This document shows positions 56,943-64,000 of a DNA stretch of 64,000 nucleotides, piece by piece. The stretch comes from Myxococcales bacterium. GTDB lineage: Bacteria; Myxococcota_A; UBA9042; JABWCM01; BTVJ01. Location: positions 32,214-96,213 of the forward strand of contig BTVJ01000023.1 in NCBI GenBank assembly GCA_045863395.1, in the 5' to 3' direction. The notes under the pieces are model-generated. The model saw nothing but the letters and a program-made list of their open reading frames with translations, did no database searches and was not told the origin of the DNA. The position numbers and the translations under genes were made by a program. The first letter of the stretch is position 1. The number at the start of each line of letters is the position of its first letter.

Positions 56943-58382
56943 ATGTGGAGCCCGGATCGGGTAGCGCGTATCGAGAGAGGCGGGGAGCTCGTGGCCGCGG
57001 GCTACGCCATTGGACCGCGGCACGTGCTGACAGCGCGGGCCGCGGTGCAGGGGCGGGAGGGTCTTCGCGTGACCGTGGGGGAGCTCCGAGGCGTGGCAGC
57101 GACGATGGTGTGGCCGAACAACGAGGCCTTCGCGCCGGCTCTGCTGCAAACGGAGGGAGACCTCAAAGTGCCCTTGGACCTCGTTGGGCTCACGGGGCCT
57201 TGGTACTCGGCCGAATTTGCAGAGGTCCACGAGTTGGCGCTGCCTGACCAACCCAAAGGCACGGTCGCAACCACGTCAGGGCCGATGCCCCATGCGGACC
57301 GTGACACCACCTCTGTCTACCTGGAGTGTTGGACGAAGGCAGGCGAATCACAGGCAAGCCTGGGAGCTCCTGTCGTCGTCCGGTCGTCCACCCGATCAGG
57401 GTGCGTCGTGGCCGTGGTCACAGGTTCCGCGCAGCATGGCGATAACGTCGTGGACATGGCGACGCTCACCCGCGCCTTCGCCTGCGATTCCACGTTCGTC
57501 GAGGCGGTTCTCGGAGAGACTGCGGCGAAGCGGCACCAGTCATTCCTCGCCGATCTCGAGGTGAAGGTGTCGAAGACGCTGGGCGCGTCCCGTCCGCTCC
57601 GCGATGCAATGCACCAGACACTTGAAGGGCGGACAGATGGGACGCCGGAGGCGCTCGCCCGCTGGCTCCTTCACAAGGTCAGCGGAGCAGAAACCATCCG
57701 GTGTCTCCACGACGCCTGGAGGGCGGCAGACGAGCCGGCGGTCCGTGGCTTCGCGAGAGACCTGGTCTGTCACCTCCTTCCCGCCAGTCTCGATTGGCGG
57801 AGCCGAGTCTATCAGGCGATGAGCGATCTGTCCGAGATCCCCAGAGCCACTAGAATTGAAGCGCACTCGGTGACGATCGCCGAGGCCATCATGGCAGGCG
57901 CCGAGGCGCGGCCGGTGCGGTTCGCCCCGGTCCAGCACGATGCGGATCTACCGGGGCTGTCGGCCATCATGGCCCCGCCGAACACGATGGTCACGAACTG
58001 GGAGGGTCTGGCGCCGGAGGCCGTAGCCCATGGGGTGCAGCAGATGGGGGCCGATGATCCCGTAACCCTGGTAGAGGAGAGACTGGGTAGGCGCTACGCG
58101 ACCCCGGAGGTGCGGCACAGGAAGCTGGAGGGAGAGCTGAACAGGCGCGCCGAGCGTGGATTGCCCGAGCGGCCGGCGTACTACCTGCTGGTGTCCGACA
58201 TCGCCGCTGATCCCGTTGCGCGCGCCGGCCGGTGGGAGGCATTCGAGCACCAGATGTCGCGGGTCCTCCCGAGCCTCCGTGTCGTGCTCCTCTGGGGCGG
58301 CGAGGGCGTGGACGGCGAGGAGACCATTGCCATTGACTTGAGCAGCATGTTCGCGAGCGGTGAGCAACGACCACGAGGTTGA
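56943..58382 (+). CDS. vWA-MoxR-associated adaptor protein with N-terminal inactive trypsin-like domain
   Basis: GYAIGPRHVLTARAAV / ALL / SLGAPVV trypsin-like pattern without the catalytic triad; immediately upstream of MoxR; GGAGG RBS. Confidence 0.7.
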   Translation: MWSPDRVARIERGGELVAAGYAIGPRHVLTARAAVQGREGLRVTVGELRGVAATMVWPNNEAFAPALLQTEGDLKVPLDLVGLTGPWYSAEFAEVHELALPDQPKGTVATTSGPMPHADRDTTSVYLECWTKAGESQASLGAPVVVRSSTRSGCVVAVVTGSAQHGDNVVDMATLTRAFACDSTFVEAVLGETAAKRHQSFLADLEVKVSKTLGASRPLRDAMHQTLEGRTDGTPEALARWLLHKVSGAETIRCLHDAWRAADEPAVRGFARDLVCHLLPASLDWRSRVYQAMSDLSEIPRATRIEAHSVTIAEAIMAGAEARPVRFAPVQHDADLPGLSAIMAPPNTMVTNWEGLAPEAVAHGVQQMGADDPVTLVEERLGRRYATPEVRHRKLEGELNRRAERGLPERPAYYLLVSDIAADPVARAGRWEAFEHQMSRVLPSLRVVLLWGGEGVDGEETIAIDLSSMFASGEQRPRG

Positions 58383-58385
58383 TAG

Positions 58386-59357
58386 ATGACCGACTTCCTC
58401 CCCGACGACCGCGACCTCGTCATCCCTCTGGAAGCCCGCGGTGGCCTCCCCAAGTCTGTCCACCTCCTCGAGCAGGAGCAGGCGCGGGCCGTCAACGCGG
58501 CCCTCGCCACGGGTCGGCCGCTGCTCGTGCGGGGCCTGCCGGGGACGGGCAAGAGTCAGTTTGCGCGCGCCGCCGCCGAGCAGCTCAGGCGGCCGTTCGT
58601 CGCGACGGTGGTGGACGGGCAGACGGAGACGCGGGACCTGCTCTGGACCGTGGACGCCGTGGCCAGGCTGGCACGCGCGCAGGCCATCGGCGCCATGCGT
58701 CCGCAGAGCCTCCACGAAGTGTCTGAAGAGATCGCACCCGAGAAGTTCGTCCAGCCTGGCGCCCTCTGGTGGGCGTTCGATTGGACGGACGCGGAGAATC
58801 AGGCTGAGCGCGGCGGTCCCGGCGCCTGCCTCAGGGTGGTAGACGGCTTCGACACGACGCGCGGGTGCGTCGTGCTGGTCGACGAGATCGACAAGGCGGA
58901 CGCGACCGTGCCCAACGGGCTCCTCGAGGCGCTCGGGAACGGGAGCTTCAACAAGCCCTTCGGAGGGACGGTGACGATGAACCGGGAGACCCCGCCGCTG
59001 GTCGTCGTCACGACCAATGAGGAGCGCGCCTTGCCGGACGCCTTCCTGCGGCGCTGCTTGGTGCTGCACCTGGAGCTGCCGAAGGGCCGGGGCGAGCGCG
59101 TGCGCTACCTGGCGCTCCGCGGGGAGCAACACTTCGAGGGGAAGTGGGGTCCGCTCGTGCAGGAGGCCGCCGAGCTCGTCGCGGACGATTACGCGGCGGC
59201 CCGGCGGGCGGGGAAGAGCCCCCCAGGCGTCGCGGAGTATATCGATCTCGTCCGGGCAGTGGGCTCGCAGCGCAAGGACGAGGTCGGTCAGCGCGACCTG
59301 CTCAAGTTGGTCAAGCAGTTCGCCCTCGAGAAGCACCCGCGCGAGGAGAGGCCGTGA
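58386..59357 (+). CDS. MoxR-type AAA+ ATPase (conflict-system clade)
   Basis: RPLLVRGLPGTGKS, DLLWTVDAVARL, VVLVDEIDKAD..PNGLL, TTNEERALPDAFLRRC. Confidence 0.93.
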   Translation: MTDFLPDDRDLVIPLEARGGLPKSVHLLEQEQARAVNAALATGRPLLVRGLPGTGKSQFARAAAEQLRRPFVATVVDGQTETRDLLWTVDAVARLARAQAIGAMRPQSLHEVSEEIAPEKFVQPGALWWAFDWTDAENQAERGGPGACLRVVDGFDTTRGCVVLVDEIDKADATVPNGLLEALGNGSFNKPFGGTVTMNRETPPLVVVTTNEERALPDAFLRRCLVLHLELPKGRGERVRYLALRGEQHFEGKWGPLVQEAAELVADDYAAARRAGKSPPGVAEYIDLVRAVGSQRKDEVGQRDLLKLVKQFALEKHPREERP

Positions 59358-62197
59358 CCGCGGCGGCGCCCTCGGCCCGGCAGCTCGGCGCCGTGGGGCG
59401 GGCGGACCTCGCACTGCTCCTCGCGCGGGCGAGTGGCGCAGAGGTGGCCGCACAGGCTGCTTTGCTGGGATATGTGCCCATCCCGGCACCTCCTCGTGCT
59501 CGCGAGCATGGCCGCGCTGCCCCAACGGAGCCCGCCATGCCCCTTGCGGAAGGGCCGGCCGTGGTGGCCGAGGCGTCGTTCCCGCCGGTCCCGCTGCTCC
59601 AGCTCGTCGTGTCAGAGCGCCACCCGGAGGTTGCGGTCGCCCCCACTCCTCTCGAAGAGGCGGCCCCGGCCCGGGAGATCGTGGAACCGGATTCCCGCCG
59701 TACCCTCATCGACGCGCTCCCGGGTCCTCCCCTCGCGCCATGGTCGCGTCTCGAGCCAGTGCTGCGGGCCCTGCTCACGTCGGACGGCGCGGGGCGGGGC
59801 GTGGACGTGCCCGCCGTCGTCCGAAGGCTGGCGCGCGTCGAGGAGCTCTCGCGCCTTCCGCGCCGGCGGGCACGGGGCTTCGTCGGGGCCGTGGAGCTGT
59901 GGGACGACCGCTCGCACCGCGTGGCGCCCTTCCGGCACGACGCCGACCGGGTCCGTGACCGCCTCGAGAAGGTCCTGGGCCGCCACGCCGTGCGTCGGCG
60001 CCTTCTGCCGGAGCGGGACCAGCGCCTCGCGGCCTGGGACCATGGCTCCGTCCTCCCGCCCAACCAGATGCCGGTGGCGGGAACGACCGTGCTCGCGCTG
60101 AGCGACCTGGGCCAGTACGGCGACGGTGCCATGCGGCAGGCTTGGCGCCTGACGGCCGGGGCGCTGCGCAGGCGGGGGGTGCGCGTCTGTGCGCTCACGC
60201 CTGTGCCCCCGCATCGGTGGGACGTGGAGGTCGCCGCGGCGTGGCGCGCGGAGGGTTGGGAGCGCCGCCCGGTCGCTGACGCGCCGGATGCCAGGGTGGA
60301 CGCCCGGGCCGAGCGGCTCCTGGCCCTGTGCGCCGCGAGCGCGTGGACGACCCTGGGCATGCTCCGCGAGCTGCGTCTCGCGCTGCCCGCCGCCGAGGCG
60401 GACGCAGGGACGGAGGCCGACGCCTGGAACCACGCGGACGCTCTGACGGGCTGCGCGGTGGCCCTCGTGGTGGCCGCGCCGGCTCGCGACGCGCTGCGCC
60501 GGCGCTTCGCCGATGAGCCGGCAGCGCTGCGGGACCGGGTCGCCCGCATCGTGGAGGAGCGTCACGCGCGCCTGCACCTGCCGGAGCTGCTGCACGGCGA
60601 GACCCTCGTCTGGCTGCACGGCGGCCTGTGCGGCCAGTCCGGCGACGGCAGCGAGGTGCAGCCGCCCGGCGACGTGGAGCAGGCGCGCGCCCTGGTCCAG
60701 CGCTTCGCCCAGATCGCCCGGACCGGGCGGCTCGATGCCGACGCGGTGGCGCAGGTGGCGTGGTACGCAGCAGAGCTCGTCCCCCAGCTCCCCCCCGAAG
60801 CCCTCGCCGACCCGCACATCGGGCGCCCCCTGTCCGTGCTGGCTGCGCTGGCCACACGGGTGAGCCAGCGCCGGCTCCCAGCGGGCCCGGACCCGGCGAC
60901 CGCGCTCCGTGAACTCGGCGGACCGGAGCCGCCGCCGCCCCGCTGGTGGACCCTCCGCCATGTGGGTGACGCGGTCGTGGCACGACCCGGGCCGGGCCCC
61001 TGGGACGTGCGCTCGCCCCTCGGCGGCTCGCCCCTCGGCGGCATCCAGGCGAGGCTACCGCAGCTCGCCGTCCGCGTGGGCGACGGCCCGGTGATGCTCG
61101 TCGCCCTCGACGGCCCGGACCCGGCCATCCGCCTGCCGAGCGCCGTCCGCGTCGAGCTGGTGTCGGACGTGGAGCGGGTCGTCCTCGACGCACTGGAGTG
61201 CCCGGAGTGGGCCGTCGCGGCGGGCCGGGACCGCTACGGCCTGTGGGCGGACGCAGAGATCCGGGGTGTGGTGCAGCGGTTCCGGTGGGTGCCGCCTGGG
61301 ACGTTCCTGATGGGGTCGCCGGAGAGCGAGGAGGGCCGGGGGGAGAACGAGGGCCCGCAGCACGAGGTGACGTTGACGCGCGGGTACTGGTTGGGGGACA
61401 CGCCGGTGACCCAGGCGCTGTGGGAGGCGGTGCGAGGCAGGCAAGCAAACGGGAGTCGCTTTCAGTCCCCGAGTCGGCCTGTTGTGAAAGTTTCTTGGTA
61501 CAAATGCTATGCCTTCTTGAGAGAGTGCGCACGGTTGGCGCCTCAGCTCGCGGCGCGCCTGCCAACTGAGTTCGAATGGGAGTACGCGTGCCGCGCTGGC
61601 GCATCGACAGCCACGTGGCTCGGCGATCTCGACATTCGGGGCGAACACGATGCCCCGCTCCTCGACCGGATCGCTTGGTACGGCGGCAACTGCGGTCGGG
61701 ACTTCATGCTGGCCGATGGGTACGACATCCGCCCCAAGCGCGAGCGACAGTACAACGACGCATTTGGTGGTACGCACGATGTGGCTGGCAAGGCGCCAAA
61801 TCCGCTCGGGCTGTTCGACATGCTCGGAAACGTCTGGGAGTGGTGTTCGGGCTGGCTAACCCAGTACAACGCCACGGCATCCACGGACCCCACCGACACC
61901 ACCACTGGGACAGGGAAGGTTCTACGTGGAGGGGCTTGGCTCGATGCGGCCAGGAACGTTCGGGCGGCGAGCCGGGGCTGGAGCGACCCAGGTTACGGGA
62001 GCAAGGACACAGGTTTCCGCCTGGCCCGAGGTCACGTCCCGGCGGGGCAGGGGCCGGCGGCGCGGACGATGCCCCCCGCGGAGGGCGAGCGGAGCGTTCC
62101 GGGGGCGGGGGGCGGCGTTCGCGCTCCCGGCGGTGGAGGCACAGCGGCGCCTCGGACGAAGCGCCGCCCGGCGACTGATCCGAGGCGAGGGCACTGA
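59354..62197 (+). CDS. vWA-like domain protein fused to C-terminal FGE-sulfatase (CLec-fold) domain
   Basis: GTGA overlap with MoxR; GRADL, DDRSHRVAPF, LALSDLG; FLMGSP, PVTQALW, RLPTEFEWEYACRAG, GNVWEW, RGGAW..GFRLA. Confidence 0.88.
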   Translation: MTAAAPSARQLGAVGRADLALLLARASGAEVAAQAALLGYVPIPAPPRAREHGRAAPTEPAMPLAEGPAVVAEASFPPVPLLQLVVSERHPEVAVAPTPLEEAAPAREIVEPDSRRTLIDALPGPPLAPWSRLEPVLRALLTSDGAGRGVDVPAVVRRLARVEELSRLPRRRARGFVGAVELWDDRSHRVAPFRHDADRVRDRLEKVLGRHAVRRRLLPERDQRLAAWDHGSVLPPNQMPVAGTTVLALSDLGQYGDGAMRQAWRLTAGALRRRGVRVCALTPVPPHRWDVEVAAAWRAEGWERRPVADAPDARVDARAERLLALCAASAWTTLGMLRELRLALPAAEADAGTEADAWNHADALTGCAVALVVAAPARDALRRRFADEPAALRDRVARIVEERHARLHLPELLHGETLVWLHGGLCGQSGDGSEVQPPGDVEQARALVQRFAQIARTGRLDADAVAQVAWYAAELVPQLPPEALADPHIGRPLSVLAALATRVSQRRLPAGPDPATALRELGGPEPPPPRWWTLRHVGDAVVARPGPGPWDVRSPLGGSPLGGIQARLPQLAVRVGDGPVMLVALDGPDPAIRLPSAVRVELVSDVERVVLDALECPEWAVAAGRDRYGLWADAEIRGVVQRFRWVPPGTFLMGSPESEEGRGENEGPQHEVTLTRGYWLGDTPVTQALWEAVRGRQANGSRFQSPSRPVVKVSWYKCYAFLRECARLAPQLAARLPTEFEWEYACRAGASTATWLGDLDIRGEHDAPLLDRIAWYGGNCGRDFMLADGYDIRPKRERQYNDAFGGTHDVAGKAPNPLGLFDMLGNVWEWCSGWLTQYNATASTDPTDTTTGTGKVLRGGAWLDAARNVRAASRGWSDPGYGSKDTGFRLARGHVPAGQGPAARTMPPAEGERSVPGAGGGVRAPGGGGTAAPRTKRRPATDPRRGH
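62060..62124. repeat. Imperfect inverted repeat (hairpin A) downstream of the first CLec variable-like region
   Basis: GCGCGGACGATGCCCCCCGC ... GCGGGGGGCGGCGTTCGCGC. Confidence 0.7.
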
Positions 62198-63042
62198 TGG
62201 CACGGATGATCGACACAGTGCCTGGGCCGCCCGCTCTGCCTGCCGGCCCGCTTCTGCCCCCAGGCCGCCACCCGCTGGCCCCTGGGCTCCCCGAGCCTTG
62301 GGCCGCGGAGTGGGGGCAGGACCGCTACGGTGTCTTCACGGCCTTCGCGGTCGGCGACGTGGTTCAGCGCTTGCGGTGGGTTCCCCCCGGCACGTTCCTG
62401 ATGGGCTCGCCCGAGGGCGAGGAGGGGCGGCGGGACCTCGAAGGACCTCGGAGCCCCGTCACGCTCACGCGCGGCCTGTGGATGGGCGAGACCCCGGTGA
62501 CGCAGGCCCTGTGGAGGGGGGTCATGGACCACAATCCGAGCAGGTTTGAAGAGGACGGAAGGCAGCGACCTGTCGAGTGCGTGAGCTGGGACGACTGCCA
62601 GCACTTCCTAGAGCGGCTCCACCGGGTCGTGCCCGGCCTGCAGCCCCGCCTGCCGACGGAAGCCGAGTGGGAGCGCGCCTGCCGGGCGGGAACGGATGGC
62701 GCGCGCTACGGGAGGCTCGACGAAATCGCGTGGCACGACGGGAACTCCGGCAATGGGACCCGCTCGGTGAAACAGCGGCTTCCGAACGCCCTCGGGCTGT
62801 ACGACATCCTCGGCAACGTGTGGGAGTGGTGCTCGGACTGCCTCGGTCCGTACCCACCAGGCCCTCGGGTCGACCCGGCCAGCGTCTCTCCGGGCTCGAG
62901 GCGGGTCATCCGGGGCGGCTCCTGGAGCAACCCGGCCGGGAACGTCCGGGCGGCCTACCGGAGCGGGTACCCGCCCGGGTTCCGGTTCGAGTTCCTGGGC
63001 TTCCGGCTCGCCCGAGGTCACGACCAGCAGGCCAGCCAGTAG
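62197..63042 (+). CDS. Stand-alone FGE-sulfatase (SUMF1/CLec-fold) domain protein
   Basis: TGATG overlap; GQDRYG, FLMGSP, RLPTEAEWERACRAG, GNVWEW, RGGSW...GFRLA; lacks FGE catalytic cysteines in the C-terminal segment. Confidence 0.92.
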   Translation: MARMIDTVPGPPALPAGPLLPPGRHPLAPGLPEPWAAEWGQDRYGVFTAFAVGDVVQRLRWVPPGTFLMGSPEGEEGRRDLEGPRSPVTLTRGLWMGETPVTQALWRGVMDHNPSRFEEDGRQRPVECVSWDDCQHFLERLHRVVPGLQPRLPTEAEWERACRAGTDGARYGRLDEIAWHDGNSGNGTRSVKQRLPNALGLYDILGNVWEWCSDCLGPYPPGPRVDPASVSPGSRRVIRGGSWSNPAGNVRAAYRSGYPPGFRFEFLGFRLARGHDQQASQ

Positions 63043-63045
63043 GCG

Positions 63046-63110
63046 GCGCAGACGACGGCCCCAGCGGAGGGCCAGCGGAGCGGCCCGGAGCCTGGGGCCG
63101 TCGTTCGCGC
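63046..63110. repeat. Inverted repeat (hairpin B) downstream of the second CLec gene, homologous to hairpin A
   Basis: Perfect 13-bp core ACGACGGCCCCAG (63052-63064) / CTGGGGCCGTCGT (63092-63104); a second 8-bp stem CGGTCGAG/CTCGACCG at 63117-63145. Confidence 0.8.
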
Positions 63111-63283
63111 CGCCCCCGGTCGAGTCTGCTCGGGCGCCTCGACCGCCCGTTTCCAGGCATCCGCCCGTACGCGACCCCCGAGAAGACTCCCCCCGCTGAA
63201 TCCCCGTGGTTGTCCGTGACGGCTGTTGAACCAATGAGCGCTCTCCCGAACCGCACCAGCGGACCGGACCATCACCCAACGCG

Positions 63284-64000
63284 CTACTTCGCCATCCGCC
63301 TGTACCGAGCAACCTTGGCGATGCCCTGCATCCTCAGCTCGTCCCCGAGACCCTGCGCCGTAAGGCCGAGCTTGCGGGCTGCCGCGGTGACGTCTCCTCC
63401 ACACTCCGTCCACGCCGCTCGCAGCGCCTCAGCACTGACCGTGTCCCCGGCCTCTCGCAGAATCTCGCGACGCTGGAGCTCCCTGCGGAGCTGCCCCACG
63501 CTGACGACGATTCCATGCTTCATCTGCAGGCGGTCCACGGTCGCGGCCAGCGAGCGGCCCGGGTCGCGCTCCTCCCATCTCTCCTCGAACAGAGACTCGA
63601 TCTCTGCGCGGTCCAGGTCAACGAGCCCCTTCGATGGCCGCTCGGGTCCTCCGCACGACACCCCCTCGTCTCGGCCCGGCGACGGGGTCTCGCAGAAGGC
63701 CTCCGGCGCGGGCATGGCCCGCGTCCCTCCGAACTCCACCTGCGCGTCCGGGTTCCTCTCGAGAGCGTGGCGATTGAAGGTCCAGAGCCACTCGGCGGCC
63801 GCCCGGAGCTGCCGCACGTTGAGTGGCCAGTCGTAGCGCAGGAGCCGGCACAACAGCTCCGGGGGAACCAGAGGGCTCTCGCGGGAGGTGAGGCGGCCCA
63901 CGTCATACCCCGAGGAGGATGCCGCCTGCCGCAGGAAGTGCCAGAATGTTGACGCGCATCGGAAACCGCGCAAATCACAGCACGCCGGAGGGGGACTGGC
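63284..64000 (-). CDS. C-terminal part of a sigma54-dependent activator-like (bEBP/Fis-HTH) protein, truncated by the window edge
   Basis: HFL, LLRYDWPLNVRQL (sensor II-like), GGDVTAAARKLGL Fis-type HTH; frame open to window end. Confidence 0.75.
   Translation of the reverse strand, partial: ASPPPACCDLRGFRCASTFWHFLRQAASSSGYDVGRLTSRESPLVPPELLCRLLRYDWPLNVRQLRAAAEWLWTFNRHALERNPDAQVEFGGTRAMPAPEAFCETPSPGRDEGVSCGGPERPSKGLVDLDRAEIESLFEERWEERDPGRSLAATVDRLQMKHGIVVSVGQLRRELQRREILREAGDTVSAEALRAAWTECGGDVTAAARKLGLTAQGLGDELRMQGIAKVARYRRMAK

Follow-up and report, generated by a model that had tools for sequence, protein, structure and literature searches.

The window analyzed here, that is, the whole stretch of 64,000 nucleotides, lies at the end of contig C23 in an assembly of 8.77 Mb with 71% GC and 186 contigs, 97.4% complete. 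The main features of the locus are listed in Table 1. Its genes form an operon in the order effector, MoxR, long CLec target, and short CLec target. The short target comes last, its start overlapping the stop of the long target in a TGATG, and the two targets abut with nothing between them. No sigma-70 promoter or terminator was found in a scan of positions 61900-63400.

Table 1. Features of the MoxR/CLec locus, in coordinates of the window
Feature	Coordinates	Strand	Description or basis
Third component (effector position)	56943..58382	+	479 aa; trypsin-like N-terminal domain and conserved C-terminal domain matching no Pfam family
MoxR-type AAA+ ATPase	58386..59357	+	Pfam AAA_5, E=4.8e-9
Long target gene	59354..62197	+	947 aa; a vWA-like domain predicted at about residues 144-305, a helical region, and a CLec domain at the C-terminus
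Decayed or decoupled variable region (VR) of the long target	61916..62035	+	40 mismatches to the short VR
Diverged hairpin copy, translated as the tail of the long target	62053..62134	+	83 nt aligned with the hairpin of the short target at 79.5% identity; z=-1.85
Approximate cassette site (HRDC-RT-template in orthologous loci), empty here	62135..62196	.	Gene order in L179, L180, L186, L189, L192
Short CLec-only target gene	62197..63042	+	281 aa; FGE-sulfatase/TvpA-like fold
VR of the short CLec target	62902..63021	+	A-to-N footprint against the C97 paralogue and orthologous templates
Putative IMH at the VR's constant 3' end (inferred)	62995..63021	+	1 mismatch to the C97 copy
GC-rich hairpin with GCGGAG motifs, putative target-recognition inverted repeat	63042..63114	+	DNA fold and conservation

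Genes of the operon

The product of the short target gene matches the FGE-sulfatase family in Pfam (PF03781, E=1.7e-42), and its best match in PDB is the Treponema DGR target TvpA (2y3c, E=1.4e-30), with the alignment running through the VR. In catalytic FGE proteins the RGGS motif is directly followed by a pair of active-site cysteines, and FGE 6muj, as aligned, has cysteines at this place. The short target has a gap there and no cysteine beyond residue 215; to judge from the alignment, it would not be a catalytic formylglycine-generating enzyme. The protein forms a singleton cluster, its closest homologue among the matches listed being 62% identical; myxobacterial names occur among the named homologues, and a DNA search of 60 relatives revealed no close copy of the locus, the best matches reaching about 70-80% over short stretches.

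The hairpin immediately downstream of the short target has a DNA folding energy of -36.9 kcal/mol (z=-4.83), which was equaled by none of 200 shuffles, and it is not followed by a terminator-like T run. Long genomic matches to its sequence are confined to the 3' flanks of three targets of the family. The hairpin is similar to the GC-rich inverted repeats reported 3' of the IMH in DGR targets (PMC5758913). The VR's end, and with it the putative IMH, was placed directly after the GFRLAR codons, where the family templates diverge from their own VRs.

The long target matches FGE at its C-terminus in Pfam. Its N-terminus is probably vWA-like, as suggested by modeling. The AlphaFold model of this part has a mean pLDDT of 79, and its top four VIA structure matches, all to chains of vWA type, have Z 8.5-9.0 and rmsd 2.7-3.4 across 115-121 residues; phosphoribosyltransferases are tied with them at Z 8.4-8.5. 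A weak VWA_CoxE match in Pfam (E=0.013) was observed in one of 16 members, the best Foldseek match, a NorQD chain, was not significant (E=0.013), and a profile search of PDB sequences with the N-terminus gave no significant match. By its features the long target was assigned to a SAV_2336-like cluster (0.92).

The MoxR protein is 42-56% identical to the ATPase encoded upstream of orthologous targets. The alignment shows other residues at the catalytic His and Ser positions of the third component; three orthologues retain His and Ser. The protein had no significant match in Pfam and no VMAP-type domain there, and the N-termini of orthologous third components are Trypsin_2, TIR, CHAT, SEFIR, or Metallophos domains. 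Since the protease residues look substituted, the third component looks like a decoy or a decaying gene, and the locus itself may be decaying.

On the minus strand, positions 63284-64000 encode a fragment of a sigma-54-type activator (AAA lid and Fis-type HTH, both weak in Pfam), cut by the contig end. About 55 bases at that contig end are common to six other contig ends and probably belong to a mobile element.

Footprint of mutagenesis in the variable region

The original prediction recognized, from codon endings, a DGR-derived VR in the FGE-type CLec C-terminus of the short target. The codons it quoted match exactly and lie at 62923-63021; the span given for them, 62911-63022, starts four codons earlier, at the RGGS motif. 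Its own caveat, that codons ending in C or G are expected in a GC-rich genome, is justified. At the template-type slots of the VR, picked from the family templates, all nine codons end in C, and given that C occupies third positions at a frequency of 0.44-0.46 in the coding DNA nearby, this has a chance probability of about 8e-4 (0.45^9). The DGR-linked FGE C-termini of the genome have 8-9 of 9 such slots ending in C. The eight other FGE C-termini that are spaced alike and show no evidence of a DGR have 2-7 of 9, the comparison being restricted to FGE genes and chance regex matches elsewhere being left out of the count. Because three of these eight reach 7/9, codon endings taken alone are suggestive, and we regard as decisive the comparison of the VR with a paralogue.

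A second copy of the short target was found by BLASTN of the genome at the start of contig C97. The bodies of the two genes are 82.5% identical over 423 bases, and the 74 mismatches include 34 at third codon positions, with 24 synonymous codons. The 120 bases of the VR contain 18 mismatches, 17 of them at codon positions 1-2, and no synonymous change. The contrast in third positions between body and VR is significant (Fisher p=0.001), and the probability of at most one third-position change in 40 codons, given 34 in 141, is 2.2e-4. In this respect the pair (17 mismatches in this comparison, one at a third position) resembles VR pairs of intact DGR loci, which have 10-18 mismatches with 0-2 at third positions.

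The mismatches also follow template adenines. In six templates of orthologous loci adenine occupies 26 of the 120 VR positions, and 15 of the 18 mismatches fall on these (p=1e-9, or p=5e-8 when positions 1-2 alone are considered), the test being one of a paralogue pair against proxy templates, with the pair's own template never observed. The same 15 of 18 were obtained with 11 more distant template-like segments as proxies; these were chosen from 114 C-termini by at least six Asn codons, and six of them pass a self-repeat test, L071 being unconfirmed. The three mismatches off the family adenine sites are at 62925, 62978, and 63014. Differences at positions other than A occur in 23% of DGRs according to Wu et al. 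2018 (PMC5758913). Thus the footprint seen in the C97 paralogue bears out the predicted origin, and the segment is, on this comparison, a real DGR variable region.

Could the paralogues have acquired this pattern without any DGR, through gene conversion that homogenised their 3' ends, followed by positive selection on ligand-binding residues? The 93 bases past the VR (63022-63114) contain a single difference from the C97 copy, and since retrohoming alone does not explain this identity of 98.9%, one must assume either conversion or a hairpin under strong selection; the residues that changed correspond, too, to naturally variable columns of the family. Nonetheless, we consider it very unlikely that the VR was never a DGR target. 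Conversion and selection would have to account for 14 amino-acid changes, four of them two-base, in 40 codons beside one change in 93 adjacent bases, and for changes that track template adenines even within codon positions 1-2, and the orthologous loci are true DGRs.

The VR of the long target has a different history. Of its 40 mismatches to the short VR, 16 are at third positions, and of 22 residues that are identical, 11 are encoded with a different third base. In four intact loci the corresponding number of third-position mismatches is 0-2, so the long VR seems to have been decoupled long ago. Third-position GC is 0.68-0.78 in the CLec domain of the long target (61394-62000) and 0.86-0.98 upstream of it; a domain swap from another source or long drift could possibly explain this drop.

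Templates and cassettes

When the N-terminal 79 residues of the family were searched against 400 genomes of the phylum, 15 genomes gave matches. Twenty regions around the matches, from 12 genomes, were examined, and 13 of them contain MoxR and at least two CLec domains (L182, L187, L193, and L195-L198, having no MoxR match or RT, are left out of this count). In five of the 13 loci, those named in Table 1, an RT and a template are present, always between the long and the short target, and an HRDC gene is detectable in three of the five. A short contig of G009 has the order HRDC-RT-template-short target. The cassette is missing from the remaining eight loci, as well as from two named loci, L037 and L048.

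Templates of orthologous loci differ from their VRs mostly at adenines (11/11, 16/16, 12/13, 12/14, 7/8, 13/13, 12/15, 13/13, and 8/8 mismatches). They are also close to the template that the original prediction had guessed from the VR, apart from two slots: at A-A-x-R all six orthologous templates have Tyr and not the guessed Asn, and at 62965 they have Trp (five) or Gly (one). The nearest real template, that of L189, and the VR have 24 differences, 11 of them at template adenines.

Of the eight loci, L188 (G148) is without the roughly 1.9-kb cassette carried by its congeneric orthologue L180 (G156), and 15 of the 16 mismatches between the L188 short VR and the L180 template are at A; to judge from these alignments, the pair shows a direct case of cassette loss in congeners. 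The VRs of L194, another of the eight, differ from the L179 template of the same genome by 12 and 14 mismatches, 12 of them at A in both cases, and L194 is by this footprint a real trans target. In G259 (98% complete), G117, and G362, an RT query and a template pattern found nothing, within the scope of those queries; three G259 VRs at two loci have 15-16 base differences, with 0-1 at third positions. In L127 (G009:C359) the cassette is present, and the adjacent short target, which differs from the template at 28 sites, 14 of them at A, is apparently decoupled in cis.

No cognate template was found in the 97.4%-complete assembly of the present genome by BLASTN and by scaffold and motif scans. 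In the scaffold scan only the short target and the C97 copy match at 91 of 91 positions, the next match being the long target with 64; a scan for windows rich in Asn codons was uninformative, having too many matches, and was replaced by the scaffold and motif scans. BLASTN for a cassette remnant between the two targets gave nothing convincing. The genome contains four RT matches, of which the best is 35% identical to the RT of an orthologous locus, compared with 56% between orthologues. In the tree five orthologous RTs form a 100/100 clade with all RTs of this genome outside (the tree omits the L186 RT, which is in two pieces, and the C33 RT is a long branch). Accordingly, a cognate DGR RT with its accessory gene was not found in the assembly.

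Other DGR elements of CLec type are present in the genome. C33:45128-52670 is an intact-looking DGR, in which a 1228-aa ORF ending in a CLec VR is followed by HRDC, Avd, and an RT with the YMDD motif; its template, about 1.5 kb beyond the RT and past an opposite-strand stretch, differs from its own VR by 13 mismatches, 12 of them at A. Another DGR, at C47:10490-11456 (minus strand), is decayed: it has a CLec target with an internal TGA, no RT, and a 5'-truncated template remnant that pairs with this CLec target, 11 of 14 mismatches being at A.

That the short VR is a target of one of these elements, namely the intact C33 DGR, the RT relic on C68, or the C47 template remnant, is the least probable of the explanations considered, although all three are present and of CLec type. 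The C33 template differs from the short VR at 50 of 123 sites, only 16 of them at A, which leaves 34 non-A mismatches, and the C47 remnant differs at 33 of 78 sites, 10 of them at A. The truncated C68 RT stops short of the catalytic motif and is joined to an Avd end, and neither it nor the C33 RT falls in the orthologous clade. All three were rejected as the source.

Variation at the VR was sought in contigs of four runs (X1, X2, X3, and X6) of bioreactor and sludge metagenomes from three studies, at 80% likeness; these are contigs, in which rare variants are lost, some records are removed by a filter, and X1 may be the source sample. The window allele has no differences wherever it is covered, its coverage ending at 63028 in X3 and at 62955 in X6, and its VR is letter-identical in the three studies as far as coverage reaches. 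The C97 allele recurs in runs with the expected 60, 21, and 16 differences, and in X1 the 93 differences listed are the 93 differences of C97, kind for kind. Among the matches listed for the four runs there was neither a template nor a further VR allele, and at 80% likeness the 3' half of the VR was covered by no third contig, in a search sensitive to 39-42-nt pieces of distant genes in the same runs. The depth over 62954-63010 is fully explained by the listed contigs of target copies in all four runs, and over 62897-62953 the excess of 0-2.7 is far less than a copy would add at the depth that the organism has in X1 and X2. Contigs of the RNA run X2 span 61700-63035, and contigs cannot show transcription; contigs of X3 and X6 in which one paralogue passes into the other at repeats common to both probably reflect joins made in assembly, and were set aside. 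At the contig level, where rare variants are hidden, no new allele was seen of the kind for which the original prediction had proposed the mapping of reads.

Two scans for the VR pattern were made in larger collections: in the metagenome collection it gave only two matches, both by chance in unrelated genes, and in the viral collection none, such scans being no proof of absence.

Among the findings that were to speak against a DGR origin, the original prediction had listed a missing template, missing variation, and paralogue differences not confined to template adenines. The template and the variation were indeed not found, and the paralogue differences nonetheless concentrate at the template-A sites. 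Its further claim of a remote target acting in trans is unsupported for the present, as neither the assembly nor the contigs of the four runs yielded a cognate template or RT.

A live target of this kind would require that a cognate HRDC-RT-template cassette exist in the organism, be missing from the bin, and act in trans at low frequency. The footprint is fresh and the hairpin intact, the family contains true trans targets (the L194 VRs with the L179 template), and, according to Doré et al. 2024 (PMC10907252), strains with intact cassettes occur alongside broken ones. Room for such a cassette is offered by contig C97, on which the copy of the short target begins mid-gene; a repeat end cuts off the DNA upstream, the expected place of the cassette, and the 5' half of the gene is absent from the assembly. 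This repeat end, which we take to be the end of an IS-like element, is common to two other contig starts. Against a live cassette, a third contig spanning the 3' half of the VR is missing from the matches listed for four runs at 80% likeness, and neither allele changes in any of the three studies over the parts that are covered. We therefore hold continued rewriting to be unlikely, though less so than conversion with selection or targeting by another element of the genome, and the VR is probably no longer live.

On the same contig, C97:754-2601 (minus strand) encodes a kinase-like protein fused to FGE/CLec, convergent on the paralogue, and its C-terminus carries no DGR footprint.

A probably orphaned target and its relatives

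We suggest that the segment is the VR of a DGR target that has likely been orphaned and is frozen at the last allele written before the cassette was lost, and we assign this reading a probability of roughly 0.78. The ancestral locus may have had the order effector-MoxR-long target-HRDC-RT-template-short target. The cassette would then have been lost from the locus, after which the VR of the long target drifted to saturation. Until recently a single template would have served to rewrite both the short gene and its C97 paralogue, one or both of them in trans: of 120 VR sites, only about 3 differ off template adenines, while the gene bodies are 17.5% apart. Past targeting of the VR in trans is likely in view of the single template footprint shared by two copies on different contigs. 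The last cassette would have been lost too, possibly from upstream of the C97 copy cut by the IS-like end, and a loss on the C97 side is plausible.

The arrangement resembles described systems. In the clade 5A loci of Doré et al. 2024 (PMC10907252), for instance DGR 8 of Thiohalocapsa PB-PSB1, MoxR lies directly upstream of a long CLec target, a short CLec-only target is present, and trypsin, TIR, or caspase effectors are nearby, an arrangement that the window locus shares. By gene arrangement the window locus is likely a MoxR/CLec target of the clade 5A type. It differs from the clade 5A loci in having no RT or template of this class, at the locus and genome-wide, and in a VR that is invariant in the contigs of the runs. 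The N-terminus of the long target, described as "without predicted domains" in the same source, here has a predicted vWA-like fold.

Other loci of PB-PSB1, described in PMC10907252, offer parallels too. Its DGR 1, 4, 5, and 7 are targets without their own machinery, as is the present one. DGR 1 shows no variation and the DGR 7 VRs have no matching template in the reference, and in both respects the window VR is alike at the level of the assembly and the contigs of four runs. In contrast to the window VR, DGR 1, 4, and 5 match a template elsewhere and DGR 7 is intact in some strains. Mobile elements are reported there to degrade the PB-PSB1 cassettes.

The locus is also similar to the MoxR-vWA ternary conflict systems with FGS and DGR, which, according to Kaur et al. 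2020 (PMC7159879), combine a variable effector, MoxR, and a vWA-like protein with a C-terminal FGS. Unlike in these systems, the third component of the window has no VMAP-type domain in Pfam and its protease domain looks inactive. The sensor and defence roles are proposals that the authors of both papers (PMC10907252 and PMC7159879) put forward by inference. By analogy, the CLec domains of the window could be putative ligand sensors of a MoxR-vWA ternary conflict system, their specificity now being fixed, and a defence role of the locus is putative.

A further relative is TvpA of Treponema denticola (2y3c), an FGE-type CLec1 target with a C-terminal VR and a GC-rich inverted repeat downstream, as here. 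According to PMC5758913 the HRDC-type DGR of T. denticola has remote targets, and an HRDC accessory gene occurs also in the cassettes of relatives of the window locus. TvpA is described there as an outer-membrane lipoprotein with a cognate template; the window gene, on the contrary, lies in a MoxR operon and no template was found for it.

Our literature search, with partial coverage, found nothing on orphaned myxobacterial DGR targets, and the order with the cassette between the targets may already be contained in the supplementary figures of Doré et al. The locus is a probable myxobacterial addition to the MoxR/CLec DGR systems, as a relic of a described system. In this case a DGR target could be recognized from a pair of paralogues without a template. 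The decay of three of the four CLec-DGR classes in this genome suggests that MoxR/CLec cassettes are short-lived, which bears on whether the diversification of the proposed "bacterial adaptive sensors" is continuous or is episodic and then fixed.

More tentatively, and at somewhat less than even odds, the MoxR/CLec cassette of this phylum may be a hit-and-run diversifier, a removable HRDC-RT-template element between two targets that would install a repertoire of sensors in the paralogues and be lost time and again, so that frozen repertoires outnumber live DGRs, as cassette-less loci do among the 13 (eight to five). If so, surveys anchored on RTs would miss the frozen repertoires, and comparison of VRs between paralogues could be used to count extinct DGRs.

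A second orphan family is present in the same genome. It consists of three CLec genes (C32:108-782, C162:5601-6284, and C18:165-848) and a remnant at C2:199036; the VRs have 14-17 base differences, 1-2 of them at third positions, a hairpin is shared at contig ends, and no template for the family was found in the genome. The RT relic at C68:63-938, a fusion with an Avd C-terminus, starts with the hairpin of this family. The genome thus contains four CLec-DGR classes, three of them decayed. Two more RTs, at C78:18551-19138 and C64:33052-33651, lie in open frames of 1179 and 842 aa and fall outside the DGR group in the tree.
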